A stretch of 64,000 nucleotides of DNA from Clostridiales bacterium (GCA_020063565.1 JAICDB010000005.1:3849-67848), one strand, 5' to 3'. Positions 33,769 through 56,924 are shown, numbered from the stretch's first letter. Translations and numbers: made by a program. Notes: generated by a model not told the origin, from the letters alone.

Positions 33769-34593
33769 TTATTTACTAAACCCCACAAATCGATTAACCA
33801 TGCGAGAAATTTCTGGAAGTAATTCACAACGTAAATTAATGGGGTGTTTAAAAATATATCTAAGTGCCAGACACACCTGATCCAATGAAGCATTCCCAGC
33901 TCTTTCTCCTATACCATTAACAGTAGTACTCACCGCTTTAGCACCTGCAATAATTGCTGCTAAACTATTAGCCGTAGACAGTCCAAAATCGTTGTGGGTA
34001 TGGATTTCAATATCTATATCAACAATATCTATCAAATTTTTAATGAGTCTATATACAGAAAAAGGCTCCATAATACCCACAGTATCTGCATAACGGAGGC
34101 GTACAGCACCGTATTCAGCAGCTAATTGGGCGTATTCAGCCAAAAAATTAAATTCGGCTCTAGAAGCATCTTCTGCACCTACAGAAATGGTACACCCATA
34201 ATCTGCTGCATAACGTATAGCACCTTGGAGGCATCTCAGTACCCACTGTCTTGTTTTTCCAAGCTTTTTTTCAATGAGTAAATCGGATACAGGTGCTGAA
34301 AGGTGAAGATACCTGGCGCCACACTGAATAGATGCCCTTAAGTCAGATAAAACAATACGGTTCCAGGTGGTTACCTGAGCTTTTAATCCCGCTTGAATAA
34401 TTTTTTGAACGGCAATTTTTTCTTCCCCACCCACGACAGGTATTCCGACTTCTATAATATGAACACCTATTTTATCCAGAAGTTTCGCAATTGCTATCTT
34501 TTCTTCTACATTAAAGGCCACTCCCGGCATTTGTTCACCATCACGCAAGGTGGTATCTACGATGATTATGTCTCGTGCTGCCTCTTTTTGCAC
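33769..34593 (-). CDS. nifV: Homocitrate synthase, short (NifV-alpha-like)
   Basis: IVDTTLRDGEQ, GAEDASR, YADTVG, HTHNDFGL..AN, NGIGERAGNA; nif context. Confidence 0.85.
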   Translation of the reverse strand: MQKEAARDIIIVDTTLRDGEQMPGVAFNVEEKIAIAKLLDKIGVHIIEVGIPVVGGEEKIAVQKIIQAGLKAQVTTWNRIVLSDLRASIQCGARYLHLSAPVSDLLIEKKLGKTRQWVLRCLQGAIRYAADYGCTISVGAEDASRAEFNFLAEYAQLAAEYGAVRLRYADTVGIMEPFSVYRLIKNLIDIVDIDIEIHTHNDFGLSTANSLAAIIAGAKAVSTTVNGIGERAGNASLDQVCLALRYIFKHPINLRCELLPEISRMVNRFVGFSK

Positions 34594-34646
34594 ATTCTTT
34601 ACCTCCTTTCAGGCAGCCGCTGATGTTTTACCATCCGTTTAATGTT

Positions 34647-35940
<1,294 letters not shown>

Positions 35941-35956: not shown

Positions 35957-36106
35957 AAAAAAAAACGAGACTCTCTTTGTTTTAACAAAGAAAGCCCCGT
36001 TGCTCCCCTTTTCCAGTGATTGGCACCCAATGCTATCACTATTTTATTTTCCTGAAAAATACAAAAGCCTTTTGAAACATTTTCTGCTCCAAAAGGCGCC
36101 TTTGCC
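35957..36106 (-). promoter_or_regulatory. nifH leader with ANTAR-type hexaloop hairpins and an overlapping terminator
   Basis: GGC-AAAGGC-GCC (36095-36106) and AGC-AACGGG-GCT (35993-36004); the latter overlaps GGGGCTTTCTTTGTT..AACAAAGAGAGTCTC plus a U-tract. Confidence 0.7.
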
Positions 36107-36187
36107 AAAACCAACAATCCCCTGCTATTTCCAGTTTTGCTCTATGATTACCTATATGCTTCCTTATATATCTCTAATTTGAAATAT

Positions 36188-36216
36188 ATTATACCAGCAT
36201 AACGGTATACTTGCAA
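36188..36216 (-). promoter_or_regulatory. Sigma-A promoter for nifH
   Basis: TTGCAA-17 bp-TATAAT on the minus strand. Confidence 0.7.
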
Positions 36217-36247
36217 TATTTTTTTCAAAAGTATCTTGTATACATTA

Positions 36248-36781
36248 TTAAGGCCTCCGGGCAATAGGAAATCTCCGCCCCGTACCCTCCGTTTCATAGC
36301 GACGGTGATTCCAGTAATCCTCGTCGTTCCAAATATCTTCACAAATAGTAACGCCAAGTTTCCTCCCCTGAAAAATGAACGGCCTGCACTCTTCAGCCGG
36401 CTGAAAATACCTGCTTTCGTCAAAAACATCGTAATTAGGCAAGAGCATTTTATCCTGCCTACCGACAACACTGCCATCGTAAAACAGGAGAGACGAATTA
36501 TATAGTCGCTCACTAAGAGGATCTTTTACAGGTGCACCTAAAAGTATTCCAATATGCGAACTAGCAGGAAGTATATTTTCTCGCAATGCATTTTCAATAC
36601 GATTAACAATTTCCGGCCTTAAAAGAAGATCCCGTGCCGGATAACCGATTACCGCCAGTTCAGGAAATACTATGAGATGCGCTTTCTTTTCAAGTGCCTT
36701 ACCAACAAGTTTTAACATTTTATCCACATTATACCCGATATCGCCTATAACCGGATTAATTTGTGCCATCACTATCTTCAT
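36248..36781 (-). pseudogene. nadE: Glutamine-dependent NAD+ synthetase, truncated within the nitrilase-like domain
   Basis: AQINPVIGD...N, VFPEL...GYP.RDLL, KMLLPNYDVFDESRYF, GVTICEDIW; ends at 177 aa with no synthetase domain. Confidence 0.8.
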
Positions 36782-36861
36782 ATTTCAAACTCCCTATCCA
36801 ACCCAAATACTGGGGCTATTGATTCTACCTTATGTTATAGGGGCAATGCACTAGGATATTC

Positions 36862-37458
36862 TTATTTCTTTTTAAATAAGCTGCTGCTGGTAATAATCGC
36901 TTGGGCCACTTCCTTCATGGTCTTAGACCTCTTCATGCTTTGAGTGCGAATCAGCTTATATGCTTCCTCTTCAGTTAATTCCATATTTTCCATTAAGATT
37001 CCTTTTGCTTTTTCAACAACTTTTCTTGCCTCTAATTTTTCTTTCAGAAAATCAACTTCATTTTTCAATTTATTTACTTCTGCATTTGTTGCTAAAGCGG
37101 TCTCAATAGCAGGTAATAAATTGGCAGGAATAACCGGTTTAACTATGGTTGTCTGAATTATTCTCTTCTGGGTAATAGTTGCTAGTTCTTTTTGCCATCT
37201 ATCTGTTATTACTATAATGGGGATAGAAAGTTCAGCAATTATTTCTATCAGCTCTAGTCCTTTAATGCCCTGTAGATTGCTATCCACCAAAATCAGGTCT
37301 GTTTTTATGGTTCTTATTTCTCTTAAAACTTGAGAAGCATGGGTAGCAGACCCAGTTACCACATAACCTTCAAAGGATAAAATATTTTTTATGTTTTGTA
37401 AAAGTTCTTGATCTCCGGTTACTATATATATCTCAGTTCTTCGCAAACAAATCACCAC
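36862..37458 (-). CDS. ANTAR-domain response regulator (NasT/NitR-like antiterminator)
   Basis: Degenerate receiver plus LEARKVVEKAKGILM....LTEEEAYKLIR..SM....MKEVA. Confidence 0.92.
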   Translation of the reverse strand: MVICLRRTEIYIVTGDQELLQNIKNILSFEGYVVTGSATHASQVLREIRTIKTDLILVDSNLQGIKGLELIEIIAELSIPIIVITDRWQKELATITQKRIIQTTIVKPVIPANLLPAIETALATNAEVNKLKNEVDFLKEKLEARKVVEKAKGILMENMELTEEEAYKLIRTQSMKRSKTMKEVAQAIITSSSLFKKK

Positions 37459-37561
37459 CGTTACTTAAAGTATGTATTCAAATAAAGAGTGCCCGGCAGT
37501 TAATCCCGTACTGTCATAAAGATTAATCATTACTAGTATTTACATTTTTAAAGTACTGATT

Positions 37562-37651
37562 AAAACAAAAGCTCTCTCAATTAGACACATTAATCATGCA
37601 TCTAATAGAGAGAGCCTCATTGCTTCTCTTAACAAGATAGGCGCCATTGCC
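37562..37651 (-). promoter_or_regulatory. ANTAR dual-hairpin RNA motif with terminator
   Basis: GGC-AATGGC-GCC (37640-37651) and AGC-AATGAG-GCT (37613-37624); the second overlaps GCTCTCT...AGAGAGC followed by TTTTGTTTT. Confidence 0.8.
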
Positions 37652-37663
37652 TATTATTAAATT

Positions 37664-37692
37664 AGTTTACCATCGATTTTTAATAAATACAA
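37664..37692 (-). promoter_or_regulatory. Sigma-A promoter for the ANTAR regulator operon
   Basis: TTGTAT-17 bp-TAAACT with an extended TG. Confidence 0.55.
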
Positions 37693-37844
37693 GTATAATT
37701 TTAAATTTAGAAGGAATAAACAATAGAATTAAGGCTATTAAACGACAAGCTTATGGTTTTTGCCCGGGAAAATCATAGCTCTTAACCAACTGTTTTGGAG
37801 AAGAACCAATTTTTTTATCTATTAATTTATTTCCGAGACCAGGA

Positions 37845-37872
37845 ACAAAACTATGACATTTTTTATATAATA
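37845..37872 (+). promoter_or_regulatory. Possible sigma-K promoter of the mnx operon
   Basis: ACA-16 bp-TATAtaaTA versus consensus ACA-N16-CATAnnnTA; AT-rich context weakens it. Confidence 0.35.
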
Positions 37873-37928
37873 CAGTAAAATATCGAAAATATTTAATGTT
37901 TCTATTGTTTTAGAAAGGAGCGAATAAT

Positions 37929-38300
37929 ATGAGCTGGCACTTTCCGATTCACGAAGAGTCCACAACAAAAACTAAAGTTAAAAATATTACTACAAAAAAT
38001 GAAATTTTAAAAATCGATGACTCTATATTGCCGGAAAACCAATTATTTGCCAAGCTATTCGGACAAAACGTCCTGTTGACAATGGTCTCGGATCAACTGA
38101 ATATTCTAGGGCAAACATTTCGACCAATATTTTGCGGTAAGGTGGCAAAGGTTACTAACGGCTTCATAACCCTTGATCCTGTAATAATTAAGATGAGTAA
38201 TGCACCTTTTTTCAGGTTTCCCACACAACTGAGCTTTCCAATTGAACGCATAGCAAATTTCTTACCGTTTGACTGTGAAACACAGTTCCCTATTCCATAA
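37929..38300 (+). CDS. mnxE: MnxE-like manganese oxidase accessory subunit
   Basis: QLNILGQTFRPIFCGKVA.V..G..TL.PV.IK..NAPF..FP..LS.P.E.IA.F matches my recollection of Bacillus MnxE; two genes upstream of mnxG. Confidence 0.85.
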   Translation: MSWHFPIHEESTTKTKVKNITTKNEILKIDDSILPENQLFAKLFGQNVLLTMVSDQLNILGQTFRPIFCGKVAKVTNGFITLDPVIIKMSNAPFFRFPTQLSFPIERIANFLPFDCETQFPIP

Positions 38301-38324
38301 TTTAATAGAAGGAGTGGTATTGTT

Positions 38325-38657
38325 ATGCCCGACACTAATATTGATTTTCCTGGTTACGGTTATATACCGATACGAGATTTGCTGATAAATAACATTCGCC
38401 GGTATTTTGTTTTTAAGGAATTTGAAAAAAATCAAAGAAAAAGAGCATTTATACTGATTGCTGAGTTTCCCTTCATGATAATAGGTAAGATAGTCGAAGT
38501 AATGGGCGATTATGTTTCAGTTGATGTAGAAACAACACACATTTCTGAAATTGAAGGAAAAGTCCTCCGCATCCATGTGGATGATATTGAAGTATTTCAC
38601 ATAGAACAACCAGACTCACCAATCCCTGCCATTTCCAATGTTCAAGATGAGAGTTAA
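38325..38657 (+). CDS. mnxF: MnxF-like manganese oxidase accessory subunit
   Basis: FPFMIIGKI.E..GD.V..DVETTH...IE.....IH...IEVF.IE.P..PIP matches recalled Bacillus MnxF. Confidence 0.83.
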   Translation: MPDTNIDFPGYGYIPIRDLLINNIRRYFVFKEFEKNQRKRAFILIAEFPFMIIGKIVEVMGDYVSVDVETTHISEIEGKVLRIHVDDIEVFHIEQPDSPIPAISNVQDES

Positions 38658-38678
38658 ACAAAATGAGGGTGGTGTAAT

Positions 38679-41600
38679 TTGATTAGAAAATTTCACATTG
38701 TTGCCATACCCATTCGGATTGTTGTTAATAATTTCGGGGACCACAATCCCCATGGTATGATTTATGTGTTGAAAGAGAACGAAGCAGAGGTCAAAAAACA
38801 GGTATCCCAAAACCCGTTTACACCTGTGGACCTGGTACAGCCATTGACCATTCGAGCTAACGTGGGGGATACGGTAGAAATTCTATTTGAAAACCAACTG
38901 CCGTTCAACACATCGATGCATATTCAGTTGGCCGAGTATGATGTCCAAACCTCGGACGGTGCTTTTGTAGGCTGCAATGAAGATTCAACGGCACCTCCCT
39001 GTCCCCCGGGCGGTACCCTGACTTACCGGTGGCATGTCGAACAGGAAGGAGTCCATATCTTTACCGACCTGGGTAACCCGCTTTCTGAGGATGAAATAGG
39101 TAGCAACGTCAATGGCCTCTTTGGAGCTTTAATTGTAGAACCAAAAGGCTCTTGGTGGACCGACCCGATAAGCGGCGAACCACTGAAAAGCGGGCTTTAT
39201 GCAGATATTCACCACCCGTTGCTTCCTGATTTTCGAGAATTCACCTGGTTTTTCCACGACGAAATGGAAATTTTGGATTTAACCGGAGAGAAACCCTTTG
39301 ATCCTGTGACATTTCAACCATCAAGTACTCCTACCCAAAATTACCGCTCGGAACCAGTTCGCAATCGCGTTCGACTAATACAGGAGGGTGTTGTTTGTCC
39401 CGACTGTGAAGGTGAAGAGGTCCACCACGATTCCTGGACATTCGGTGATCCGGCTACACCTGTATTAAGAGCTTATGTAGGTGATCCCATCAAAGTCCGT
39501 TTAATTCATGGTGGAGTTAAGGAGACCCACGTCTTTCATTATCACGTCCACCAGTGGCTCACTGATCCGGAAGATGTAGATTCGGACATCATTGATTCTC
39601 AGTCAATCAGCCCCCAGACTTCTTTTACAATAAAACCTCTCTATGGTGCAGGAAGCTTCCAGGGCGCTTTTGGTGATGCAGTTATTCATTGCCACCTCTA
39701 TCCCCATTTTGGTGACGGAATGTGGGGTATCCAGCGAAATTTCAATACACTACAAGACGGTAGCCAGTGCTATCCTAACGGAGTTCCAATTAAACCTTTA
39801 CAGCCTCTACACGACCGCGAACCACCACCGCCCCCCACCCCTGAAAAACCTGGATTTCCCAATTTCATTCCCGGAATAGTTGGCTGCAAGGCACCCCGTC
39901 CCCCGCTGGGAATAATTGATGAGAGAGAACCTACTGAAATTGAAAAAAACCAGTTCGCTCCAAATTTCCGCCCCGGTGCAGTCTTCGTGAATCCTTGTAT
40001 TGAAGGAGTTACTCCGGTGCGAGAATATAACATTTCGCTTATCCAAACGAATGTAGTTTACAACCGGGCGGGATGGCATGACCCGGAAGGCCGGCTTTTC
40101 GTCCTGGCTGAAGATGAAGAAGCCGTGCTAAAAGGAGAGAAAGAACCGGAGCCGCTTGTCATACGGGCCAATGCCGGGGACTGTATAAGAGTTAATTTTA
40201 CCAACAAACTACCGGAAACCTTGGGTGGCAACGCATTTCAGCTGGTGAACCGCACATATGAGACTGGGATTCATATCCATTTCTTTAAGTTTGATCCCCT
40301 CTGTTCAGATGGCGCCAATGTCGGCTGGAACTATGATTCAGCGGTTTTGCCCGGTCAAACCATCCGTTACCAGTGGTTTGCCGATGTGGAATTAAGAGGA
40401 GTCTTTATTCACGACCACCTTTTTGCAGCGCTCCATCAACAGCATGGTGTCTTTGGAGCCGTCAATATCGAAGCTAAAGGCTCTAAATTTTTTGAACCTT
40501 TTAGCCTGGAAAAAGAAATCCGGGCAGGAACACAGGCTATAATTACCAATCCTTTAATCCCGGATTTCAGGGAATTTAGCCTATTTGCTCAGGATTTTTC
40601 CTTACTTTTTGATGCTGCTGGTTGCCCGCTCAACCAGCCGCCGTTTCCAAATTCTCAGGATGATCCCGGCGTAATGAGCATCAATTACCGCAACGAGCCG
40701 CTACAATTCCGTCTAGATCGTGACTGTGACCCAGCCTATGTCTTTAGCTCGTTTGTTAATGGAGATCCCGTCACACCGCTATTGCAAACTTACAACGGTG
40801 ACCCGGTACGGATTCGCTTTTTCCAGGGAGCCCACGAAGAGTCTCATATTTTTAACCTGCACCGGCAACGATGGAAAAGGGAACGCAGAGATCTTGATTC
40901 AGAAATCACCCAGGAACAGCACATCGGTTTATCCGATCACTTTACTTTCGAGTTTGACATCGAAGGTAACGGCGACTTCGACATGCTCTACTACTTCGGC
41001 GGAATAGACGATATCTGGTTAGGATGCTGGGGTCTTATTCGTACTTTCCAGGAGAAGATAAGAGATTTGCCGCCGTTACCAGACCGGCCGGAACCTCCGC
41101 CCCGTACCAAATTGTTTCCAGCACCAAAAAACGAAGCTAAACCGCCCCGCGCAGCAAAACCCGGTACCCCCTGTCCGGAGGATGTACCAACCCGGCGTTA
41201 TGAAGTAGTGGCACTGCAGACACCAATTATCTATAACGATGCTGGCGATAACGACCCCTGTGGAATCGTGTTCGCGCTGGCTGAAAACGAGAAAGCAATT
41301 TGTGATAGAACGCTTAATCCTGAACCCCTGATCCTCAGGGCTAATGTTGGTGAGTGTGTAGAGATCACGCTGCATAACAAGCTGACCGGCCCGTTCCACA
41401 ATGGAGGTATTCACGGCTATCCCAGTGTTCCTGTAGACGCACCCTTCCCGACATCGGGGCGAATTTCCCTCCACCCGCAGCTATTGGCATATGATGTACG
41501 GGGTTCCGACGGAGCAACAGTGGGATTCAACCCCGATCAAACTGTGGGACCGGGCGAAAGTATTACTTACCGTTGGTATGTGGATCAGGAAGTAGGGGCC

Positions 41601-42386
41601 TGTAACCTGTGGGATATGGCTGACCTTCGAAACCACCGCCATCATGGGGCTTTTGGAGTATTTATTGCTGAAAAGAAAGGTTCAAACTACTTGGATCCGA
41701 AAACCCGCGAACCGGTGAACCCTGGGGGCAGCCAAGTAATTATAAGCCATCCACTTCTGGGTGAGTTTCGAGAATTTGTTCTGCTGATGCATGATGGTGT
41801 TAGGCTGTTTGATACTAACGGTAATTTGATCATTGACCCGCAGCCGGTTATCAACGGTGCTCAAGAAAAGGATGAAGAACATGAAAATTTTGAGGATCAG
41901 GGATCACGGGGATTCAATTACCGGGCGGAACGCTTCCGCAATCGCCTGGCGAAAAACCCCGATGTATCTAAGGTGTTTAGCTCCCGATTCCATGGTGATC
42001 CAGCCACGCCGGTGTTCCTGGCTTATCCCGGTGACCCTGTTACGGTACGCTTCGTGTACCCCGCTGATAAACCCAGGGCACAAGCCTTTACAATTCACGG
42101 TCATAAATGGCGCCGCAGCCCAAAAGATCTAAATTCACCCATCGTCTCGGTACGGGGCCAAAACAGCGTAGGCTCTGCTGATAATTTCCAGTTCCAGTAC
42201 GGTGCTGGTAGTAGGTTTAGTATTCCCGGTGACTACATGTACCGGTCCGGTAATATTCGCTGGCATCTTGAACTGGGCGTATGGGGCATTATCCGAGTGT
42301 TAGCTGGACCCAATCCCTGTCTCGCACCGCTTGATAACCTGACCTTCGTAAAGGAAGATGTATCTCAAAATGGGGGTATGGAATAA
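38679..42386 (+). CDS. mnxG: Large multicopper oxidase, MnxG-like manganese oxidase
   Basis: 1235 aa; repeated cupredoxin domains (PLxIRANxGD/E), copper motifs HVFHYHVH, HCHLYPHFGDGM, HIH, HDH. Confidence 0.9.
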   Translation: MIRKFHIVAIPIRIVVNNFGDHNPHGMIYVLKENEAEVKKQVSQNPFTPVDLVQPLTIRANVGDTVEILFENQLPFNTSMHIQLAEYDVQTSDGAFVGCNEDSTAPPCPPGGTLTYRWHVEQEGVHIFTDLGNPLSEDEIGSNVNGLFGALIVEPKGSWWTDPISGEPLKSGLYADIHHPLLPDFREFTWFFHDEMEILDLTGEKPFDPVTFQPSSTPTQNYRSEPVRNRVRLIQEGVVCPDCEGEEVHHDSWTFGDPATPVLRAYVGDPIKVRLIHGGVKETHVFHYHVHQWLTDPEDVDSDIIDSQSISPQTSFTIKPLYGAGSFQGAFGDAVIHCHLYPHFGDGMWGIQRNFNTLQDGSQCYPNGVPIKPLQPLHDREPPPPPTPEKPGFPNFIPGIVGCKAPRPPLGIIDEREPTEIEKNQFAPNFRPGAVFVNPCIEGVTPVREYNISLIQTNVVYNRAGWHDPEGRLFVLAEDEEAVLKGEKEPEPLVIRANAGDCIRVNFTNKLPETLGGNAFQLVNRTYETGIHIHFFKFDPLCSDGANVGWNYDSAVLPGQTIRYQWFADVELRGVFIHDHLFAALHQQHGVFGAVNIEAKGSKFFEPFSLEKEIRAGTQAIITNPLIPDFREFSLFAQDFSLLFDAAGCPLNQPPFPNSQDDPGVMSINYRNEPLQFRLDRDCDPAYVFSSFVNGDPVTPLLQTYNGDPVRIRFFQGAHEESHIFNLHRQRWKRERRDLDSEITQEQHIGLSDHFTFEFDIEGNGDFDMLYYFGGIDDIWLGCWGLIRTFQEKIRDLPPLPDRPEPPPRTKLFPAPKNEAKPPRAAKPGTPCPEDVPTRRYEVVALQTPIIYNDAGDNDPCGIVFALAENEKAICDRTLNPEPLILRANVGECVEITLHNKLTGPFHNGGIHGYPSVPVDAPFPTSGRISLHPQLLAYDVRGSDGATVGFNPDQTVGPGESITYRWYVDQEVGACNLWDMADLRNHRHHGAFGVFIAEKKGSNYLDPKTREPVNPGGSQVIISHPLLGEFREFVLLMHDGVRLFDTNGNLIIDPQPVINGAQEKDEEHENFEDQGSRGFNYRAERFRNRLAKNPDVSKVFSSRFHGDPATPVFLAYPGDPVTVRFVYPADKPRAQAFTIHGHKWRRSPKDLNSPIVSVRGQNSVGSADNFQFQYGAGSRFSIPGDYMYRSGNIRWHLELGVWGIIRVLAGPNPCLAPLDNLTFVKEDVSQNGGME

Positions 42387-43150
42387 TGGATGATAAAAAT
42401 AAGAAGAAAAAACCATTCAGCTGTCCCGAGAGTTTACCAGCGTCCGTACCGGATGATCGTTTTTGTTCTCCGTTTCAATGTCCGGAAAAGATTCCCACTC
42501 CACGTTTTTCATCACCAAACAGCCCGCTTTCTCCGGAAGAATTGGAACAATTTCAGGAGTGCATTGAAGCTGCTAATGAACTACTTCGTACCCTTGGAAA
42601 TCCCGTAGATCCCAAAAACAAGAGAGAACTGCAGCTCCGCCTGCGCAAGCTGAGAGGTTTACTAATGCGGGTAGCGGTAGAGTGCGGGAATATTCAGGTA
42701 GACCTAGTTGGTACTTTGCAAGACGCCGGCAAGGACTTTGTACAGCTTGAAAGAGTTGGCCGCAGTACATTTATTCTATTCGAGAAGGTATGTTCCATAC
42801 GCCGTGTTACTGCCCCTGACGGGGTTGAACCCGGTCATAAGCAGGAATCGATCAATCTCGATACCTGTACCCGCCGGGAAATAATACTAAATTTCGGTAA
42901 GATTGTTTCAGGAGATCCCAACCTCATCAATATTTTCTTTGGGCTCCCCCTTCACCTCCGCCTTGTTAGCTTTCAGGGCTGTAAGGTGGAAGTAAAAATA
43001 GAGAATTCAGAAGAACCGGAAGTCATTCAAGGTATGCTATCCGCTTCAGAGGAGAAGTATATCCAAGTACAAAAGAACAACCAGCTGGAGCAAATTAACT
43101 TCAATAAAATATGCTTCATTGATGTCCTCACCGGGCATCCCGATAAATGA
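42386..43150 (+). CDS. Hypothetical protein coupled to mnxG, with two internal repeats of a small beta-rich domain
   Basis: Start overlaps the mnxG stop (TAATG); Pro/Cys-rich N-terminus; two L.LRL...G..V......G.L......F/Y.Q.....I.F.K.C.I units. Confidence 0.8.
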   Translation: MDDKNKKKKPFSCPESLPASVPDDRFCSPFQCPEKIPTPRFSSPNSPLSPEELEQFQECIEAANELLRTLGNPVDPKNKRELQLRLRKLRGLLMRVAVECGNIQVDLVGTLQDAGKDFVQLERVGRSTFILFEKVCSIRRVTAPDGVEPGHKQESINLDTCTRREIILNFGKIVSGDPNLINIFFGLPLHLRLVSFQGCKVEVKIENSEEPEVIQGMLSASEEKYIQVQKNNQLEQINFNKICFIDVLTGHPDK

Positions 43151-43255
43151 CAGTATTGTCCAATGCATCTAATGTTGACACTGGTGAACAGTTGTCTTTA
43201 GAATGCTGTTACCAGACGCCGGCTAAGATAACATTAAAAAAGGAGGTCATATAAT

Positions 43256-43654
43256 ATGTCTGACAAACAACATGTTCAAACCTGTTTGCCCATACCAAGT
43301 GCTTGTGACGGCTTTTTGGTGCATAAGGTATGTTGTGTCCCTTTTTCTTGTCCGCCTGTTATCTGCGACGAACGCATCCATCTCAAACTGTCCGGCTTGA
43401 CAGGTAACCTCAATTTTCAATTGTTCCGTTTGAAAGGGTGTAAGGTAGAAATAGAGTTGGATTGTCCTGCAGACGGAAAAAGTAAGGTTGAGGGCATTAT
43501 TTGCAATGTAGGAACTAATTTTGTAGATATAAAACTGGAAGATAACACTGTTATTACCGTACTGATAGAAAAGATCCGCCTCATTAAGTGGACCGATCCG
43601 CAATGTAATCCCTGTGTACCTCCTCCACCTGAGAAACCTTGTCCACCTTGTTAG
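43256..43654 (+). CDS. Cys/Pro-rich small protein, spore-coat-like
   Basis: RBS AAGGAGG; CCVPFSCPP, C-terminal CNPCVPPPPEKPCPPC; central domain resembles the repeats in the upstream ORF. Confidence 0.8.
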   Translation: MSDKQHVQTCLPIPSACDGFLVHKVCCVPFSCPPVICDERIHLKLSGLTGNLNFQLFRLKGCKVEIELDCPADGKSKVEGIICNVGTNFVDIKLEDNTVITVLIEKIRLIKWTDPQCNPCVPPPPEKPCPPC

Positions 43655-43751
43655 AAACAGTTGGTAAAAAAAGTTATTTCTATTAAGGAAAAAATTTTAA
43701 CGAGCCTGTTCGATAAGCACCTAAATTGGACCACGAAATGAACTAAGGTCG

Positions 43752-43934
43752 TTAAAATTGAGTGTTATTTTTAGAAAAAATATCGTCTGTAAGCCAATAG
43801 ATGGTTTTGACCCAACGGTCAACCATATTTGTATTTAAATCGTATCGCCTGACTACAACCGAGCTATTACTGGTTTCCATTGCTTCTTTGATTACCTGTT
43901 CTTTAAATTCTTTAGTATACTTCTTCCTTTGCAT
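43752..43934 (-). mobile_element. IS3-family transposase orfA fragment
   Basis: RKKYTKEFKEQVIKEAMETSNSSVV.RRYDL..NMV.RWVK (HTH_Tnp_1-like), truncated. Confidence 0.7.
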
Positions 43935-44021
43935 CTTAACTACCCCCTGACACCTTTATTATATTTATTAAGACTATAAATATCTGCGTGACATTTTATA
44001 TAAAAATCATGCGGGTTTATC

Positions 44022-44152
44022 CCAGTCAACCCTTTAGGGATTATAGATTTCTCCTGTATTCTGTCAAGGGTAAAGGCTTCGCTTGCTCCGCATTCGCTCC
44101 GCACCCTTGACAGAACCCATCCGAAAGCTATATAGTTATCAGGGTTGTCTGG
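44022..44152. repeat. GTCAAGGGT...ACCCTTGAC nested hairpin element (IS-end/REP-like), copy 2
   Basis: Perfect 13-bp IR TTCTGTCAAGGGT/ACCCTTGACAGAA inside an outer IR CCAGTCAACCCT/AGGGTTGTCTGG. Confidence 0.65.
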
Positions 44153-44360
44153 ATATTATTTACATCTGCTACTGTAGTGAATTTCTCCCGAAGACATACA
44201 ACCATTTAAAAATATTTCAATTGTAAACAAAAGGAAAAACAAAAAAGTCTTTTGTTTTACGGTCATAAACTTTTTTACCTTTTCAAAAATTTTGCAAAGT
44301 ATAATAACGTGATTGCAATGTTTAAATTATTTCTGATATTCCGCATTCTTTGTCAGTGAA

Positions 44361-45911
44361 TCAACTAAACACCTGACTATCAGCCAATAGCCTATCATAA
44401 TCCCGATACTGCACCGCCTCCGCCAAGTTATGCTCACTTATTTTATCATTCCCCTCAAGGTCGGCTATTGTTCTGGCTATTTTCAATATCCTGTTGTGCA
44501 TTCTAATACTCAATTTCAATGAATCAAATACCTGCTTGTAAAACTCTTCGGTATTTTTATCAAGTGCACAGAATTTATTTATCAGCTCTCCATCCATTTG
44601 AGAATTACATTCAACCCCGGGATAATCTTTAAATCTTTCTCTCTGAATTTTTCTGGCCGCTTCAACTCGCTTTTTTATCTCTGCAGAAGTTTCTCCCTTT
44701 TTATAATCATGCAGTTCTTCATATTTTAATCTCGGTACTTCAACCTGTAAGTCTATTCTATCCAGTAACGGTCCGGAGATCTTGGTAAGATAACGGCTGA
44801 TTGCATAAGGTGTACAGGTACATTCCCGCTCGGGATCGGACAGAAAGCCGCAGTTGCATGGATTCATTGCTGTAATAAGTATAAAATTTGTTGGGTATGT
44901 TACTGCTGCGTTTACCCTTGAAATAGTTACACTACCATCTTCCAGAGGTTGGCGTAGTGCATCCAGTACTTTACGATCAAATTCTGTAAGTTCATCCAAA
45001 AAGAGAACTCCATGAGTTGCCAATGTGACCTCTCCCGGCTTAGGGATAGTTCCTCCGCCAATTAAACTGGCAGTACTTGCGTTGTGATGGGGTGCACGAA
45101 AAGGCCGTTTTTTGACCAGTGGAATACCTTCAGGTAACAATCCACTAATACTATATATTTTAGTGATTTGCAGAGTTTCCTCCAAAGTTAAACCAGGCAA
45201 AATTGAAGGTAAGGCCTTGGCAAGCAGAGTTTTTCCGGTGCCCGGGGGACCTACCATCAGCACATTGTGATTTCCGGCTGCCGCTATTTCAAGTGCCCTT
45301 TTTGCACTCTCCTGACCCTTTATTTGTTCCATATCTACTTCATACCGAGCTTCTTGATCTGAGAAAATTTCGGAAATATCAACATGGGTTTGTGGAATTT
45401 CTGTTTTACCTGTTAAAAAATGGGCAGCTTCATTTAAACTCGAAACTCCATAAACGGTATTACTACCACTTAACGCTGCTTCATAACTATTTTGCTGTGG
45501 TACCAAAAACTCCATTGTTTCGTTTTCAGTGGCACTTACCATAGCTAAAACACCATTTAGCGGTCTGACATCACCATTTAGTGACAGTTCCCCCACAACA
45601 ATTTTTCCTTCCAATGCACTAAGTGGAATCTGCTCTGTAGCAGCTAAAATCCCTAATGCAATGGGTAAATCAAAGGCAGAACCTTCTTTTCTTATATCAG
45701 CAGGTGCAAGGTTAACAGTAATCTGCTTGGGAGGGAATTTAAAGCCTGAATTTTTGATTGCGGCCTTTACCCTTTCACGTGATTCCCTTACAGAAGTATC
45801 TGGCAAACCGACCATATGAAAACCAGGCAATCCTCCCGAAACATCAACTTCTACTTTTACATTAAATCCTTTAAGTCCTAGTAATGAACAACTATTAACA
45901 ATAGCAAGCAT
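44361..45911 (-). CDS. comM: YifB/ComM Mg-chelatase-like AAA+ ATPase
   Basis: VGLPD..V.ESRERV, NLAPADIRKEG, GPPGTGKT, PFRAPHH, LFLDE, SGPLLDRID. Confidence 0.93.
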   Translation of the reverse strand: MLAIVNSCSLLGLKGFNVKVEVDVSGGLPGFHMVGLPDTSVRESRERVKAAIKNSGFKFPPKQITVNLAPADIRKEGSAFDLPIALGILAATEQIPLSALEGKIVVGELSLNGDVRPLNGVLAMVSATENETMEFLVPQQNSYEAALSGSNTVYGVSSLNEAAHFLTGKTEIPQTHVDISEIFSDQEARYEVDMEQIKGQESAKRALEIAAAGNHNVLMVGPPGTGKTLLAKALPSILPGLTLEETLQITKIYSISGLLPEGIPLVKKRPFRAPHHNASTASLIGGGTIPKPGEVTLATHGVLFLDELTEFDRKVLDALRQPLEDGSVTISRVNAAVTYPTNFILITAMNPCNCGFLSDPERECTCTPYAISRYLTKISGPLLDRIDLQVEVPRLKYEELHDYKKGETSAEIKKRVEAARKIQRERFKDYPGVECNSQMDGELINKFCALDKNTEEFYKQVFDSLKLSIRMHNRILKIARTIADLEGNDKISEHNLAEAVQYRDYDRLLADSQVFS

Positions 45912-48138: not shown

Positions 48139-49572
48139 TTAAAATGGAAAGAAAGCTGTAGCTACATCTAGGACAAGATTTGTGAATGGAGTTGGATAAA
48201 CTCCAAAAAATACTAAAACTATTAAACACAAAGCCAGTGCCAGTTGTACGCTACCTGGAACCTTAATAGGTTCAGCACCTTCTTCAGGTTGTCCCAGATA
48301 CATTGCCTTAGCTACTATGAGATAATAGTATACTGATACCATACTCATACCAATTGCTATAAAAGCAAGCCATATATGCCCCTGTTCTATAACAGCAGTA
48401 AAGAGGTAAAATTTACTCACAAATCCTGCAAGTGGTGGTATACCTGCTAGGGAAAGCAAGCAAATCAGCATAACTGCAGCCATTAAAGGAGACCTCTTCC
48501 AAAGTCCCTGATAATCTTTTATTTGATCGCTGCCAATAGATTTACCAACTACAGTCGCTACTCCAAAGGCTCCCATATTGGCAAAGACATACAGGAGGGA
48601 ATGGAACATGATAGCTGCAACTCCCAATTTAGAAAATGCTACCATTCCTAGCAAGATGAAGCCCGCTTGCCCAACACTTGAGTAGGCAAGCATTCTCTTG
48701 ATATTAGTTTGCGGAATGGCAACCAGGTTGCCAAGAACAAGTGTTAACACTGTTAATGCAGTTATGACGATAACCCATGTTTCCTGAACAGGAGCAAGTG
48801 CAATCATGAAAAATCTCACGAAAATGGCAAAAGCGGCAGCCTTAGAAGCTACTGACATAAAACCTGTAATAGGTGTGGGAGCTCCTTCGTAAACATCCGG
48901 AGACCACATATGAAACGGAACTGCAGAAACTTTAAAACCAAAACCGGCAAGTGTAAATATCATGCCAATCAGCAATAAGGGTTGTATTCCCTGCTGATTT
49001 ATTATCTTAGCAATTTCAGTAAGCAAAACAGATTTCGTAGCTCCGTAAACCAAACTTAAACCGTAAAGCAGCACTGCAGATGACATGGCGCTTAACAGAA
49101 CATATTTTATACCTGCCTCAGTGCTCTTTGCACAATTTTTTCTAAATGCCACAAGTATTACAAAAGCAATAGTGTTTAGCTCCAAACCTAAATAGAAAGT
49201 AATTAAATCTCCTGCTGAAACCATTATCATCATTCCCAAGGTTGCAAATGTAACTAGCGAATAGTATTCACCTTGTCCGTAACCTTGCTCTAAAATATAG
49301 TCCTTGGAAATGAGACATGTAAAAAACACTGCAATTAAAAGTAAACCTTTAAAGAACAATGAAAATGGGTCTATTAGATACATGCCATTTAAAAAGCTAG
49401 CGTTAGTTCCTGCATACAGAAAATTGACGCCAAAAATTGCTATAAAGCCGATAATAGCTATATTAGCAATTCCTTTATTATGAGTTTTAGGAACTAACAG
49501 TCCCATGACCAAAAGTATCAAACCGAGTAAAGCAGTTGCTATCTCTACTCCTAGAAGATAATATTCAGCCAT
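48139..49572 (-). CDS. nuoN: Complex I-like subunit N
   Basis: EAGIKY, FKVSAVPFHMWSPDVYEGAPTP, KRMLAYSS. Confidence 0.94.
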   Translation of the reverse strand: MAEYYLLGVEIATALLGLILLVMGLLVPKTHNKGIANIAIIGFIAIFGVNFLYAGTNASFLNGMYLIDPFSLFFKGLLLIAVFFTCLISKDYILEQGYGQGEYYSLVTFATLGMMIMVSAGDLITFYLGLELNTIAFVILVAFRKNCAKSTEAGIKYVLLSAMSSAVLLYGLSLVYGATKSVLLTEIAKIINQQGIQPLLLIGMIFTLAGFGFKVSAVPFHMWSPDVYEGAPTPITGFMSVASKAAAFAIFVRFFMIALAPVQETWVIVITALTVLTLVLGNLVAIPQTNIKRMLAYSSVGQAGFILLGMVAFSKLGVAAIMFHSLLYVFANMGAFGVATVVGKSIGSDQIKDYQGLWKRSPLMAAVMLICLLSLAGIPPLAGFVSKFYLFTAVIEQGHIWLAFIAIGMSMVSVYYYLIVAKAMYLGQPEEGAEPIKVPGSVQLALALCLIVLVFFGVYPTPFTNLVLDVATAFFPF

Positions 49573-51138
49573 TTAAAACACACCCCCTATAGCTTGAGCA
49601 GCCTGAATTTTTGCAATAAGGGGTTCTACACCTATATTAATCAAATCGGTCATCGGTGCCGGGAAGAGACCGAATAAAATCAATACGCTAATAAGAATAA
49701 CAATAGGTACCATTTCAATTCCCTTTGCATCAGTAAGGTGGTCCCATTCCTCCTTACGAGGACCAAAGAAAACAAACTGTACAACCCTCAGAACATAAGT
49801 AGCTGTAATTACAATACCCAGTATGGCAAGTATTGATAAAGCTCTAAAGGGAATAAAGCCCAACACAACTTTATCAATAGTAAAGGATCCCACGAAAATT
49901 AGAAATTCAGCAACAAAGTTATTTAATCCAGGTAATCCCAGTGACGCCAAACCTGCTATAACAAATCCTGTAGCTACTCGCGGCATCTGGTGGGCTAATC
50001 CGCCAAACCTGGCAATCTCCCTTGTATGTGCTTTATGATAAATGTTACCTACAAGGGCAAAGAAGAGAGCTGTCATAATACCGTGCGCAAACATTTGAGC
50101 TACGGCACCATCTATACCCATTGAATTTAAAGAAGCAATTCCTAGAAGTACATATCCCATGTGACTAACACTAGAGTAACCGATAACAAACTTGAGATCT
50201 TTTTGTACCATAGCAACCATGGCACCATAAACCACATTCACTATACAGAGAACTGCAATTAAAGGAGCCCAGTATTTTGCACCCTCTGGGAAGAAAAAGA
50301 TCCCAAGTCTAATAATACCATAACCACCAAGCTTCATCAGAACGCCTGCGTGAAGCATACTTACCGCAGTAGGTGCAGCAACGTGACCGTCAGGTGACCA
50401 GGTGTGGAGGGGCCACATTGGAACAAGGAATCCAAAGCCTATTAACATTAAGAAGAAAGCAAACTTTTGGAAAGCTATGTCATAATGAACAGTTGCCAGT
50501 TTTTCAATGTCAAATGTCAAATATCCTAGATGTTGAGGTGCTCCCGCATAAAGGAAAGTTGCTATTATACCGATTAAGGCAAAAGCACTTCCGACAAGTA
50601 AGTATAGTGTTAATTTCATGGCAGCATACTCTTTGCGGGTACTTCCCCAAACTCCGATCAGGATGTACATCGGAATAACAGCTACTTCAAAGAAGAGATA
50701 GAAGAAAAACATATCCCTTGTTACGAATACTCCAAAAACACCTGCAACCAGAGCAAGAAGAAATATGAAAAATTCTTTTATCCTGGTATGCATATCCCAG
50801 GAAGCAAAAACTCCTGTAAAAATTACTATTGAAGTTAGTAGCACCAATGGCAGACTCATACCGTCTACACCAAGGGTATAATTTATGCCGAATCTATCGA
50901 CCCAGGGAATTGACTCAACAAATTGTACCCCGCCAACTGACCTGTCATAGGTCAGGAAAATAAAAATTGAAAGAGCTAATGATATAAAAGTTGCCACTGC
51001 TGCAGTAATCTTAATTAATAGCTCTTCCTTTTCAGGAATTAAAAGGATCGCAAGGACTCCAATAACAGGGGCTAATACTATCGCTGACAAAACAGGAAAG
51101 TTCATTGTATCCCTCCTAGCACGGGCATACCCATCCAC
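49573..51138 (-). CDS. nuoM: Complex I-like subunit M (likely start MNFPVL at 51105)
   Basis: LGVDG.S, PLHTWSPDGH..APT, MKLGGYG, YSSVSHMG. Confidence 0.94.
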   Translation of the reverse strand: MDGYARARRDTMNFPVLSAIVLAPVIGVLAILLIPEKEELLIKITAAVATFISLALSIFIFLTYDRSVGGVQFVESIPWVDRFGINYTLGVDGMSLPLVLLTSIVIFTGVFASWDMHTRIKEFFIFLLALVAGVFGVFVTRDMFFFYLFFEVAVIPMYILIGVWGSTRKEYAAMKLTLYLLVGSAFALIGIIATFLYAGAPQHLGYLTFDIEKLATVHYDIAFQKFAFFLMLIGFGFLVPMWPLHTWSPDGHVAAPTAVSMLHAGVLMKLGGYGIIRLGIFFFPEGAKYWAPLIAVLCIVNVVYGAMVAMVQKDLKFVIGYSSVSHMGYVLLGIASLNSMGIDGAVAQMFAHGIMTALFFALVGNIYHKAHTREIARFGGLAHQMPRVATGFVIAGLASLGLPGLNNFVAEFLIFVGSFTIDKVVLGFIPFRALSILAILGIVITATYVLRVVQFVFFGPRKEEWDHLTDAKGIEMVPIVILISVLILFGLFPAPMTDLINIGVEPLIAKIQAAQAIGGVF

Positions 51139-52982
51139 AGTACTATTAGAACTATAGCAATAAATATTACCAATGCATAGTTCTGTAAGCTACCTGTATG
51201 AATAAATCGCAATCTTGCACCGGCAGCCCTTATGGAATCTGAAATACCGTGAGCAGTTCCATCAACAACATTTCTATCATGCCATTTGAACATTGAGGCG
51301 ATTGTTAAAACTATATTGTCAAAGATCCACTGGTAAATTTCATCTATATAGTACTTGTTATAAAGGATGTTATGAATGGGCTGAAATCTGTTTTTAATTT
51401 TTTCTGCAGATATTACCTTTTTACCGTATACTAACCAAGCAAGTACTATACCTGCAATTGCCAATAATGTTGAAGTAAACATCAACATGTAATCAGGTGT
51501 TACATGATGAGGATGTTCAAAGTAAACTAAGCTTGCAAAACCGTGCTCAACAAATGGTGCACCCCAGAAGCCGATGAAGATAGAAAATACAGCCAAAATA
51601 ATTAACGGAACTGTCATACAAAGAGGTGATTCATGAGGTTCATGTTCAGTTCTATCTTCACCAAAGAACGCCACAAAAATTAACCTGAACATGTAAAATG
51701 CTGTTAGGAAAGCTACAATTGAACCAATTATATACAAACCGGTAAATCCAGCTTCCTTTGTAGCCAGTAAAATTTCATCCTTGCTCCAGAATCCTGCAAA
51801 AGGAGGAATGCCAGCAAGGGCCAGTGCACCAATTACAAATGTCCACGTAGTAACTTTCATCTTCTTCACTAAAGCGCCCATCTTCCAGATGCTGTTGCTA
51901 TGTACAGCATGAATGGCGCTACCTGCACCCAGGAAAAGAAGCGCTTTAAAGAAAGCGTGCGTTGTTAGGTGAAACATACCTGCAGTGATACTTCCAACAC
52001 CTACAGCCATTACCATATATCCCAGCTGACTGAGTGTAGAGAAAGCAAGAATTCTCTTTATATCATCCTGGACTACAGCAATAGTAGCTGCAAAGATGGA
52101 TGTAAATCCTCCTACATAGGCAATGGTAAGCAGGGATACAGGCGCAGCATGAAAGAGCACAAACTGTCTTGCAAGTAAGTAAACACCTGCAGCAACCATT
52201 GTAGCAGCGTGAATCAAAGCGCTAACCGGTGTAGGACCTTCCATTGCATCCGGCAGCCAAACATGTAACGGAAATTGAGCTGATTTGCCAATAGGCCCAA
52301 TGAATACAAGAATTGCTGCCATAGTCAGAAAAGCAATATTTTCATATCCATGAAAAGCCTCAGCAAGTTCTCCAAAGTTGAAAGTTCCAAATTGATAGAA
52401 GAGGAAAAAGATACCCAGCATAAAACCAAAGTCTGCAACCCTGTTGGTTATAAAAGCCTTTTTATTGGCATCAGCCGCTGATTTGCGACCGAAGTAAAAG
52501 CCGATTAAAAGATAGGAACACAAACCTACAAGTTCCCAAAAAAAGAACATTTGAAAATAGTTATTTGCAACCACAAGACCTAGCATTGAAGATGCAAAAA
52601 GCGACAGGTACGAATAAAAACGTGAAAATCCTGGATCTCCTTCCATGTATCCCATAGAGTATATTTCTACAAGCAGTGCAACAATACATACTACCAGGAG
52701 CATTACAGCAGTTAGTGGATCAATTAAAATCCCTGCATTGATCTCAATTCCTGGAACTGACATCCAACGCACAGAATACTCAACAGGATTTTCCATTGTA
52801 ATTCCCATCTGAAGAACCTCAAAGAAAATGCCCAGAGAAATCACTAAACTAGTAGCCATAGCAGCTATTGCCACCAGTGCGCTTAAAAGCTTAAATCGTT
52901 TTGTAGCCAGTGCAATAATTACAAACCCTAATGCTGGCAAGACTGGGATAAGCCATGCTAATTCAATCAATTTATTCACCAC
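51102..52982 (-). CDS. nuoL: Complex I-like subunit L
   Basis: WELVGLCSYLLIGF, GKSAQFPLHVWLPDAMEGPTPVSALIHAATMV, THAFFKALLFL. Confidence 0.96.
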   Translation of the reverse strand: MVNKLIELAWLIPVLPALGFVIIALATKRFKLLSALVAIAAMATSLVISLGIFFEVLQMGITMENPVEYSVRWMSVPGIEINAGILIDPLTAVMLLVVCIVALLVEIYSMGYMEGDPGFSRFYSYLSLFASSMLGLVVANNYFQMFFFWELVGLCSYLLIGFYFGRKSAADANKKAFITNRVADFGFMLGIFFLFYQFGTFNFGELAEAFHGYENIAFLTMAAILVFIGPIGKSAQFPLHVWLPDAMEGPTPVSALIHAATMVAAGVYLLARQFVLFHAAPVSLLTIAYVGGFTSIFAATIAVVQDDIKRILAFSTLSQLGYMVMAVGVGSITAGMFHLTTHAFFKALLFLGAGSAIHAVHSNSIWKMGALVKKMKVTTWTFVIGALALAGIPPFAGFWSKDEILLATKEAGFTGLYIIGSIVAFLTAFYMFRLIFVAFFGEDRTEHEPHESPLCMTVPLIILAVFSIFIGFWGAPFVEHGFASLVYFEHPHHVTPDYMLMFTSTLLAIAGIVLAWLVYGKKVISAEKIKNRFQPIHNILYNKYYIDEIYQWIFDNIVLTIASMFKWHDRNVVDGTAHGISDSIRAAGARLRFIHTGSLQNYALVIFIAIVLIVLWMGMPVLGGIQ

Positions 52983-52996
52983 CTTACATTAAACGT

Positions 52997-53305
52997 TTAC
53001 CACTTCAGCCAATCAATTTCGTCCACATTTGAAGTAAGCCTTTCTCTATATACCTTAACTACAAGAGCAAGTGCAACTGCAACTTCCGCAGCAGCAACAA
53101 CTATTACAAAAATAGTAAAGATAAAACCTGTTACAGCATCAGGGGTTAAAAACCTGTTAAAAGCAACAAGGTTTATATTCACTGAATTAAGCATTAATTC
53201 TATACCCATTAAAACAGCTATAGCATTTTTTTTGGATACAGCACCGTATAAGCCGATTGAAAATAGAACAGCTCCAAGTAACAAATAATGATAAATTGTT
53301 ATCAT
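52997..53305 (-). CDS. nuoK: Complex I-like subunit K
   Basis: [19 protein letters not shown]. Confidence 0.95.
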
Positions 53306-53808
53306 TGTTCTTTTTTCACTCCCCTTGCCAAAATAATGGCACCTACAAGGGCCTCAAGTAATAAAAGTGCAGCAACTTCAAAGGAAATAACAAAATCCCC
53401 CATCATTGCAATAGCAAGAGGCTCTACTACACTTTTCCCTACACTTTCTACAATTTCAAAACCACTGTTAAAAATCATGGAAACAGTTACTACGAGAAAA
53501 GCTAAACAAGCAAGTGACGCAATAATAGCGTATCCATTAAAGGGATTACTTGCTCTAATGTCACCACGCCTTGTAAGCATAACAGCAAAAACTATCAGAA
53601 TTGCAATTGCACCAGCATAAACAAGTATTTGTACCGCAGCTATAAAATCTGCTTGGAGTAATGCATAGATTCCTGCCATCCCTACAAAAGTTACGATTAG
53701 AAAAAGAGCGCTATGAACAATATTTTTCATGAAAACTACGGCTAATGCAGAAAGAACTATAACTGCGGATATTAGCCAGAAGAACAACGGTTCCAATGTA
53801 CCGTTCAT
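53302..53808 (-). CDS. nuoJ: Complex I-like subunit J
   Basis: [22 protein letters not shown]. Confidence 0.94.
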
Positions 53809-53822
53809 ATTTTTTCACCCCT

Positions 53823-54248: not shown

Positions 54249-54262
54249 TAGGTCCTCACCCC

Positions 54263-55303: not shown

Positions 55304-55329
55304 GTTATTTCTCCCCTATACTTATTTTT

Positions 55330-56448: not shown

Positions 56449-56476
56449 AAAAACTACCCCTTGTCACGAATTTTTC

Positions 56477-56923: not shown

Positions 56924-56924
56924 A

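Follow-up and report, generated by a model that had tools for sequence, protein, structure and literature searches.

What would a manganese oxidase that needs oxygen do in a bacterium that seems to live without it? Mnx is the best understood bacterial manganese oxidase and is strictly O2-dependent, and to our knowledge all work on it has dealt with spores of aerobic Bacillus. The question is raised by a 64,000-nucleotide stretch of DNA from a Clostridiales bacterium (GCA_020063565.1 JAICDB010000005.1:3849-67848), referred to here as the window, which carries Mnx genes at positions 37929-43654. We found that these genes belong to a compact cassette of five. What is new here is the type of host, an anaerobe-like spore former with no detectable terminal oxidase, for a known Bacillus-type Mnx. 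On balance, and with reserve, we favour the reading that the cassette is intact and selectively maintained, that it serves to coat spores with MnO2 on contact with O2, and that horizontal gain is its likeliest origin.

Gene content of the cassette and its kinship with Bacillus Mnx

The genes of the cassette (the island) are as follows.

37929..38300, plus strand: mnxE, 123 aa; open reading frame (ORF) at these coordinates with a match to 9bxa_B
38325..38657, plus strand: mnxF, 110 aa; match to 9bxa_E
38679..42386, plus strand: mnxG, 1235 aa, TTG start, six-domain multicopper oxidase; match to 9bxa_A
42386..43150, plus strand: mnxD-like gene (MnxD paralogue), 254 aa; in one single-linkage family with genes at the mnxD position
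43256..43654, plus strand: gene called S here, 132 aa, Cys/Pro-rich; of a family found near mnxG, with a GerQ/Sm-like barrel

All five ORFs are intact and co-directional (plus strand, 37929-43654). As read from the sequence, 24 nt separate mnxE from mnxF and 21 nt separate mnxF from mnxG; mnxG and the mnxD-like gene overlap by 1 nt (TAATG), and 105 nt lie between the latter and S. Each of the five starts has a Shine-Dalgarno sequence, S having a strong ribosome-binding site of its own, and the mnx genes are translationally coupled in a tight operon. None of the five products, as read from their sequences, carries a signal peptide. On the 5' side of mnxE, a 470-nt spacer is followed by a divergent ANTAR regulator gene. 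The ORFs and their matches confirm the mnxE-F-G set that the earlier note had placed at 37929 on the plus strand. As a label for the whole span 37929-43654, "mnxE-F-G" holds for those three genes and under-describes the rest, since the mnxD-like gene and S also lie inside.

The proposed kinship with Bacillus PL-12-type Mnx was borne out by alignment: each of the three subunits has a counterpart among the chains of the solved Bacillus structure 9bxa, and for MnxG the match runs end to end (1622.1 bits, query residues 1-1210 against 1-1206 of the 1227 in 9bxa_A). The next-best PDB matches of MnxG are two-domain laccases with E values of about 1e-13. MnxE aligns with 9bxa_B (E 2.4e-26, residues 17-122 against 6-109 of 110) and MnxF with 9bxa_E (E 4.4e-15). 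Pfam recognised Cu-oxidase_3 and Cu-oxidase_2 in MnxG and gave no match for MnxE or MnxF. The copper ligands, described earlier as intact on the strength of the segments HVFHYHVH and HCHLYPH...M, are complete: the motifs HxxHxH, HCHxxxHxxxxM, HxH and HxH are all present in MnxG, making up the type-1 site and the trinuclear cluster, and 12 of 12 ligands (H284, H287, H289, H337, C338, H339, H343, M348, H532, H534, H578 and H580) are the same in all of the 77 MnxG homologues aligned (100%). The assignment of residues to coppers is our assumption, taken from the general multicopper-oxidase motif rule and not from a structure. MnxE keeps 12 of the 12 invariant columns in a 43-sequence MnxE alignment, and in MnxF the invariant P49 and G54 are retained, as is H84, which is near-invariant. 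Homologues of mnxE lie directly 5' of mnxF/mnxG in 74 comparator loci. A threefold internal repeat of MnxG is still visible in the DNA at 39112-41776, as two repeat families of three copies each with spacings of 1332-1335 and 1200 nt. By every feature that sequence can test, the cassette belongs to the Bacillus-type Mnx family.

Published work describes MnxE and MnxF as an alternating hexameric ring on one MnxG, with Mn(II) oxidised stepwise along a tunnel and MnO2 leaving through the MnxE/F ring (PMC5622069; PMC13689576). It gives mnxEFG as the minimum active set, used an mnxDEFG construct of PL-12 expressed in E. coli with added copper, and reports a disulfide in PL-12 MnxE, which the retention of C69 and C116 in window MnxE fits (PMC5622069); the Km of PL-12 Mnx for Mn(II) is quoted as 0.116 mM (10.1101/2022.11.10.515945). 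Compared with Mnx of PL-12/SG-1 (9bxa), the window has three homologous subunits in the same gene order. MnxG is 1227 aa long in PL-12 and 1235 aa in the window, the copper ligands are invariant in both, and neither protein has a signal peptide, the N-termini aligning from residue 1. The window differs from PL-12/SG-1 in that its locus is without mnxA, mnxB, mnxC (SCO1) and the upstream mnxD and has a D-type gene 3' of mnxG instead; in that its host has no detectable terminal oxidase and does have hydrogenases and enzymes of the pyruvate:ferredoxin oxidoreductase (PFOR) type; and in habitat, which is subsurface and oil field for the window lineage and marine sediment for PL-12/SG-1. The MnxG of Pseudomonas putida GB-1 (NF041487) is likewise a multicopper Mn oxidase, has the same name and shows local similarity to window MnxG, but it is secreted, has no MnxE/F partners and belongs to a Gram-negative host (PMC13689576).

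We compared the locus with those of other MnxG relatives. The search found 175, the best 80 of which were kept for locus comparison and a tree; crude ORF calls from 76 loci with MnxG relatives and two more that were fetched were clustered into families. The classical Sporosarcina/Bacillus order is X5-X5-SCO1-D-E-F-G-D, followed by a convergent S. Its third gene is SCO1/SenC, which fits mnxC, and we therefore read the classical arrangement as mnxA-G with two further genes behind it that have not been described. The names mnxA-D for the upstream positions are, we take it, those of van Waasbergen et al. 1996. Judged by its genes, the window cassette is not of the classical mnxA-G operon form. A compact E-F-G-D-S form occurs in Alkalihalobacillus pseudalcaliphilus (L004), A. 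alcalophilus (L022) and Geomicrobium halophilum (L023), and also in Bacillus massilioanorexius (L020), Peribacillus cavernae (L024) and Tissierella creatinophila (L025). These loci share with the window the same five gene families, the lack of mnxA-C and an MnxG identity of 69-73%; they differ in that S is mostly convergent or lies upstream on the opposite strand, whereas the window's five genes are co-directional.

Several comparator loci have features of their own. In Lysinibacillus/Ureibacillus loci (L007, L008, L012 and others; at about 4.7-6.1 kb of the locus) a CopC-CopD fusion gene precedes the mnx cluster, and L007 also has genes for a collagen-repeat protein and a PKD-domain protein close by; such surroundings suggest that copper supply is dedicated and that the neighbours are of exosporium type. 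Some single genomes hold two or three divergent mnx clusters from different MnxG clades (L021/L029 and L028/L041/L047; Peribacillus glennii, Bacillus sp. V5-8f). In L033, from a record titled as a metagenome-assembled genome (MAG) of Thermaerobacter marianensis, mnxG is broken into two ORFs (604 and 544 aa). The GC content of the contig is about 39-44%, Thermaerobacter is a high-GC genus, and the label looks doubtful.

Genes of the D and S types are newly recognised here as near-constant companions of mnxG. The mnxD-like family, built by single linkage and including the genes at the classical mnxD position, has 124 members in 72 of the 79 loci, and an S family member lies near mnxG in 62 of the 79. 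The AlphaFold model of the D-like protein (pLDDT 83.5) has a helical N-terminal part and two five-stranded Sm-like barrels; its Foldseek matches are weak (Hfq, GerQ and RimP, with GerQ 8zra_A at rank 24). The S model has one GerQ/Sm-like barrel at about residues 49-112, and its best PDB match in Foldseek is the GerQ spore-coat filament structure 8zra_A (E 5.3e-4, TM 0.74 by target, rmsd 1.3 Å), with Hfq proteins next. The barrel of S is homologous to that of D (hhalign against the MnxD family, 95%, E 3.7e-8). At Pfam E values up to 0.1, the D-like protein matched only DUF6897, whose cut-off of 23.9 bits it missed with 20.8, S matched only RimP-C (E 0.017), and neither matched the GerQ (PF09671) or DUF2642 profile. 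The likeness of D-like and S to GerQ, DUF2642 (YuzF), YwrJ and CotB-type coat proteins is thus one of fold, in that the predicted barrels superpose on 8zra_A, without a family profile match. Because Hfq and RimP share the fold, fold alone is no proof of a coat role. Those Atlas neighbours of D-like and S that bear names belong to spore-coat families; their scores are below 0.9, and they serve as leads.

We also predicted a complex of D and S. The ipSAE score was 0.47, against 0.00 for the best of three controls. Of 157 solved complexes, 116 reach this mark, as do 2 of 215 mismatched pairs; with a score of 0.60 or under, no more than 18 of the 157 do so, along with both mismatches. Prediction runs agreed in at least 57% of contacts, with partner pLDDT of at least 66, and the prediction lends weak support to D-S binding. 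Kinship of MnxE and MnxF with the D and S barrels, also considered, is not supported (hhalign 13.5% for F against D and 6.7% for F against S). MnxE against MnxF gave a probability of 57% (E 1e-4), and 9bxa chains are absent among the Foldseek matches listed for the D-like and S models.

Host lifestyle and other carriers

The host MAG comprises 2.36 Mb at 39.0% GC and is 80.8% complete and 0.7% contaminated; the window lies on a contig of 135.6 kb. It is the sole genome of its family, and the order has four other genomes, which form a sister family. We found four matches to small acid-soluble spore proteins (SASPs), two of them on the window's contig, together with SpoIIID, four [FeFe]-hydrogenase catalytic domains and five PFOR-type genes. 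Neither a haem-copper oxidase (COX1) nor cytochrome bd was found in the MAG at its 80.8% completeness. By gene content, an endospore-forming anaerobe is well supported as the host and, with 19% of the genome missing, not proven. Two tandem alpha/beta-type SASP genes lie about 28 kb past the window's end (G000:C26:95608-96059, E about 1e-28).

We next consider whether such a combination of genes is unique to this host. The earlier note had suggested a survey of Clostridia for the cassette; ours, for MnxG across the phylum, found it in none of the four other genomes of the order and in 8 of 400 others sampled from the phylum, in 8 families, so that its occurrence is patchy. Both COX1 and cytochrome bd are missing from five of these eight carriers, which are 85-100% complete; two have cytochrome bd only, and one has a marginal COX1 fragment (39.8 bits). 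The isolate genome of Tissierella creatinophila DSM 6911 holds an S-E-F-G-D set and is likewise without COX1 and cytochrome bd. All five oxidase-less carriers tested (four phylum-sample genomes and T. creatinophila) have SASPs. Carriers in Alkalihalobacillus and Anaerobacillus have terminal oxidases. A profile search for partner genes among the eight phylum carriers found them only in G322 (E and F) and G340 (E, F, D and S), G322 being an oxidase-less carrier with mnxE and mnxF beside mnxG. The E, F, D and S profiles had no match in G021, G024, G043, G111, G150 and G208, which may have diverged partners or none. Mnx in an oxidase-less spore former is, on these counts, not unique to the window host.

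A microaerotolerant or microaerobic host, whose terminal oxidase would lie in the unassembled 19% and whose Mnx would work as in Bacillus, is unlikely in our view. The MAG is 80.8% complete, and cytochrome bd occurs in three of the four sister-family genomes and in two of the eight other phylum carriers of MnxG, all of which would suit such a host. The sister family as a whole has COX1 and MnxG in 0 of 4 genomes each and acetyl-CoA synthase in 4 of 4, the last of which speaks for an anaerobic host, as does the recurrence of the stretch in subsurface and oil-production metagenomes (see below). As a rule, the cytochrome bd of such lineages serves to detoxify O2 and not to sustain growth in air, which counts against a microaerobic host, as do the four [FeFe]-hydrogenases and five PFOR-type enzymes beside which neither oxidase was found, and the five other carriers and the Tissierella isolate that also have neither. 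The description of the host as an apparent anaerobe stands on its hydrogenases, PFORs, SASPs, SpoIIID and lack of an oxidase match; its limit is that "no oxidase" has to be read as "not found", because the MAG is 80.8% complete and three of four sisters have cytochrome bd.

Other genes in the window agree with what had been noted of this host: corrinoid methyltransferases, nifH and a nuo operon without nuoEFG are all present. The nuo operon (48139-57784, minus strand) comprises 11 genes, nuoA-B-C-D-H-I-J-K-L-M-N, with no nuoE, nuoF or nuoG between nuoD and nuoH, so that the window's complex I is without the NADH-oxidising module. A corrinoid methyl-transfer cluster (18967-27208, minus strand) holds DUF1638, two B12-binding proteins, a GntR regulator, two MFS transporters, a URO-D/MtaA-like methyltransferase and a pterin-binding protein. 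Relics of nif (33769-35925, minus strand) consist of an intact nifH (272 aa) by a 158-aa ORF and an HMGL-type (NifV-like) gene; there is no nifD or nifK within the window. A complete-looking type I-C CRISPR-Cas set (2-6868, minus strand) comprises Cas3 (HD and helicase), Cas5d, Csd1/Cas8c, Cas7, Cas4 and Cas1, the last of which runs past the window's start.

Among the papers listed in the literature searched, which did not extend to subscription journals, no account of anaerobic Bacillota with Bacillus-type mnx genes came to light. A preprint on the distribution of these enzymes has no occurrence of "anaerob" or "Clostridi" (10.1101/2022.11.10.515945).

Proposed function on the spore surface

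We hypothesize that the cassette would be expressed in the mother cell during sporulation, its products having no signal peptide. MnxE and MnxF would form an E3F3 ring on MnxG, as in Bacillus sp. PL-12, and the complex would be placed in the outermost spore layer, with or onto the two Sm/GerQ-like coat-type proteins; D-like and S are candidates for fixing it to the spore surface. The enzyme would be idle during anoxic life. Once a dormant spore met both O2 and Mn(II), as could happen at a redox boundary or in injection or ground water that carries oxygen, MnxG would make Mn(IV), O2 would be turned to water and a crust of MnO2 would form. Analogy with Bacillus suggests that spores of some strict anaerobes coat themselves with manganese oxide on meeting air, and it is from this analogy that we infer timing of expression, spore location and Mn oxidation activity in the window host. 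A bolder form of the proposal, in which Mnx would be no speciality of aerobic marine Bacillus but a mobile spore-surface module of strictly anaerobic endospore formers that yields an O2-triggered Mn-oxide armour, with D and S as its coat anchor, seems to us possible and distinctly doubtful.

A number of observations weigh against the proposed spore coating. With the NCBIfam equivalog profile for MnxG (NF041487), whose cut-off is 3100 bits, window MnxG scored 319.5, spread over 7 stretches; this profile is 1894 positions long and evidently describes the longer proteobacterial MnxG. The family at the mnxA/B positions and SCO1 are present in comparator loci and were not found in the window's locus, which, with mnxA, mnxB and mnxC absent, offers no evident copper-loading route. 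Their absence is not decisive for activity, since mnxEFG is the stated minimum in the work on PL-12 (PMC5622069). Upstream of the window's mnxE no sigma-K consensus (AC-N16-17-CATANNNTA) was found, nor was a sigma-E consensus, and a CATAnnnTA element lies upstream of mnxE in several Lysinibacillus and Ureibacillus loci, unlike the window. Matches of sigma-70 type occur at 37853-37881 (ATGACA-17-TAAAAT) and, before S, at 43175-43204; such matches are near chance, with 19 found and 14.9 expected. The MAG, at 80.8% completeness, gave no match for Spo0A, SpoIVA or acetyl-CoA synthase. In G001-G003, three of the four sister genomes, spo0A and spoIVA lie on one contig, 50-70 kb apart, so one unassembled piece could explain both of these absences. 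The cytochrome bd of the sister family makes a host oxidase in the unassembled part conceivable. Lastly, no contig in the runs examined (see below) bridges either edge of the island by 31 nt.

The role of the complex may also be something other than Mn mineralisation. MnxG could be a general O2-consuming enzyme, or an oxidase of Fe(II), Cu(I) or phenols, that protects components of the spore or sporangium. Multicopper oxidases are often promiscuous, which speaks for this alternative, and the window locus is without the classical mnxA, mnxB and mnxC. CotA and CueO oxidise Mn(II) in vitro, poorly, according to one source (10.1101/2022.11.10.515945), and this promiscuity points the same way. Against another role, window MnxG is similar end to end to the characterised PL-12 enzyme, the dedicated MnxE and MnxF are kept, and these two are described as forming the tunnel exit where MnO2 condenses (PMC13689576). 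We saw no sign of another substrate for window MnxG. We regard a different substrate as improbable to about the same degree as a microaerobic host.

Placement, origin and maintenance of the island

We examined the island's surroundings next, where two further features mark its edges.

37459..37928, no strand: upstream intergenic region, 470 nt, holding a dispersed repeat (37710-37808) that is the island's left edge
43689..44183, no strand: insertion sequence (IS) and repeat debris at the right edge, including a transposase HTH fragment (43752-43934, minus strand)

A 9-kb stretch around the island is present, with at least 0.9 of sampled words, in runs of four studies. Three DNA runs (X2, X3 and X7) from three studies, two subsurface metagenomes and one oil-production-facility metagenome, were examined as Logan contigs. 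One contig spans 37779 to 43764-43773 in X2 and in X7, and three adjoining contigs cover the same span in X3. The depth of the island equals that of its flanks in all three runs (925 against 873-879, 54 against 59, and 114 against 93-112). In each run contigs end at both island edges (37779-37794 and 43764-43794), breaks that are explained by their coincidence with multi-copy repeats. Because no contig bridges the edges, linkage of the island to the host rests on the MAG contig and on equal depth.

Both edges are indeed repetitive. By blastn of the host against its own genome, copies of the repeat at 37710-37808 that are 70-90% identical to it lie on contig C1 (two), on C11 and at another place on C26. 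Depth in the bin 37505-37805 is twofold. In the bin 43525-43825 it rises to 3511, 225 and 3432, compared with about 925, 54 and 114 for the island itself. The IS debris that had been seen at the right edge was verified as a 60-aa transposase fragment (43752-43934, minus strand; Pfam HTH_Tnp_1, E 3.3e-6) and two multi-copy pieces, 43689-43794 with copies at the end of C12 (97%) and at C26:125194 (82%), and 43980-44183 with copies on C23 (96%) and C3 (87%). A composite transposon was considered and rejected: no long direct or inverted repeats bracket the island, and its edges hold unrelated dispersed repeats. At position 37760, a full-depth contig in all three DNA runs has 38 extra letters between the two sides, as would be expected if the genome held another, longer copy of the dispersed repeat at a different site.

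We found that mnxG has a GC content of 48.9%, against 39.0% for the host genome (+9.9 points). A rise of this kind is common to comparator loci, where mnxG is GC-richer than its own flanks in 70 of 72 (median +5.2, maximum +8.6 points), and we therefore rejected GC content as sufficient proof of transfer. At third codon positions, window mnxG has a GC3 of 0.46 against a genome mean of 0.342 (sd 0.066, z 1.8), a value as high in 44 of 996 long host ORFs; comparator mnxG genes show no such excess (median +0.0095, range -0.12 to +0.12 in 64 loci). At the first two positions, GC12 is 0.503 against 0.432. About half of the mnxG GC excess is amino-acid composition, and the rest is a modest foreign-looking signal. 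The higher GC pointed out in the earlier note is real, and as a sign of foreign origin it holds in part.

The MnxG tree was a quick LG+G4 tree of 77 rows with two rows under 1100 aa dropped. Window MnxG is sister (SH-aLRT 93) to two MAGs of high-GC uncultured Bacillota (L002 and L003), which carry several haem-copper oxidases. The backbone around it, with Tissierella beside Tumebacillus and an Alkalihalobacillus/Geomicrobium group, is poorly separated. Because its root is unknown, the tree settles neither donor nor direction. The sister family keeps comM-UPF0102-nuoN at the island's right side, and nothing similar to the ANTAR, nifH and HMGL side occurs within about 15 kb in its genomes. The island lies at a synteny break, and the break is demonstrable while an empty insertion site is not. 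Horizontal gain of the cassette is likely, and the likelier because of this break, the repeat and IS debris at both edges and the modest GC3 excess. The suggestion of an acquired system is plausible on the patchy distribution of MnxG, the debris, the synteny break and GC3, and the tree names no donor or direction for it.

Is the island maintained, or is it a recent silent passenger that is neutral or decaying in its host? The debris at both edges, the GC3 of mnxG (0.46 against 0.342), the synteny break with the sister family and the failure to recognise a sporulation promoter upstream of mnxE are all consistent with a passenger. On the other side, the five ORFs are intact and the copper ligands invariant, and strain differences in mnxG, among those listed (40 of 91), are synonymous in 16 cases and not in 4, which fits purifying selection on mnxG. 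A near-identical island occurs in runs of several studies, and contigs of an RNA library fall on four island genes. This oil-field library (X19) has 8 contigs of 176-484 nt, with 0-17 mismatches, on mnxE, mnxF, mnxG and the D-like gene; they are presence in an RNA library and not proof of transcription. No X19 contig lies on 36000-37800 or 43000-45000, and such absence of contig cover is no evidence on expression relative to the flanks. With these points taken together, we give a silent passenger a low probability, below that of the two alternatives above. The C-terminal tail of MnxF varies by strain over its last ten codons (38629-38657), with the stop changed from TAA to TAT, in two DNA runs and one RNA run; the adjoining mnxG start has only synonymous changes. 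The tail may be a small recombination tract or may evolve freely.

That the island comes from another organism, as an assembly or binning artefact, is very improbable: contigs of three DNA runs do end at both edges, unbridged by 31 nt, and composition is unlike that of the flanks, but the island sits inside a 135.6-kb contig with nifH and the ANTAR regulator on one side and comM and nuo on the other, its depth equals flank depth in three runs whose absolute depths differ 17-fold, the edge breaks coincide with multi-copy repeats, and estimated contamination is 0.7%.

We return to the reading of a maintained cassette that coats spores with MnO2 and to its meaning. It would put the purpose of spore Mn oxidation in a new light, as the enzyme of an anaerobe would be usable solely during dormancy in contact with air. 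Action in that state alone would point to spore protection or O2 scavenging, not to metabolic gain. A cultured carrier exists in Tissierella creatinophila DSM 6911. If the bolder form of the proposal is true, spores of anaerobes would be overlooked Mn(II) oxidisers at oxic-anoxic boundaries, both in the subsurface and in oil-field waters.

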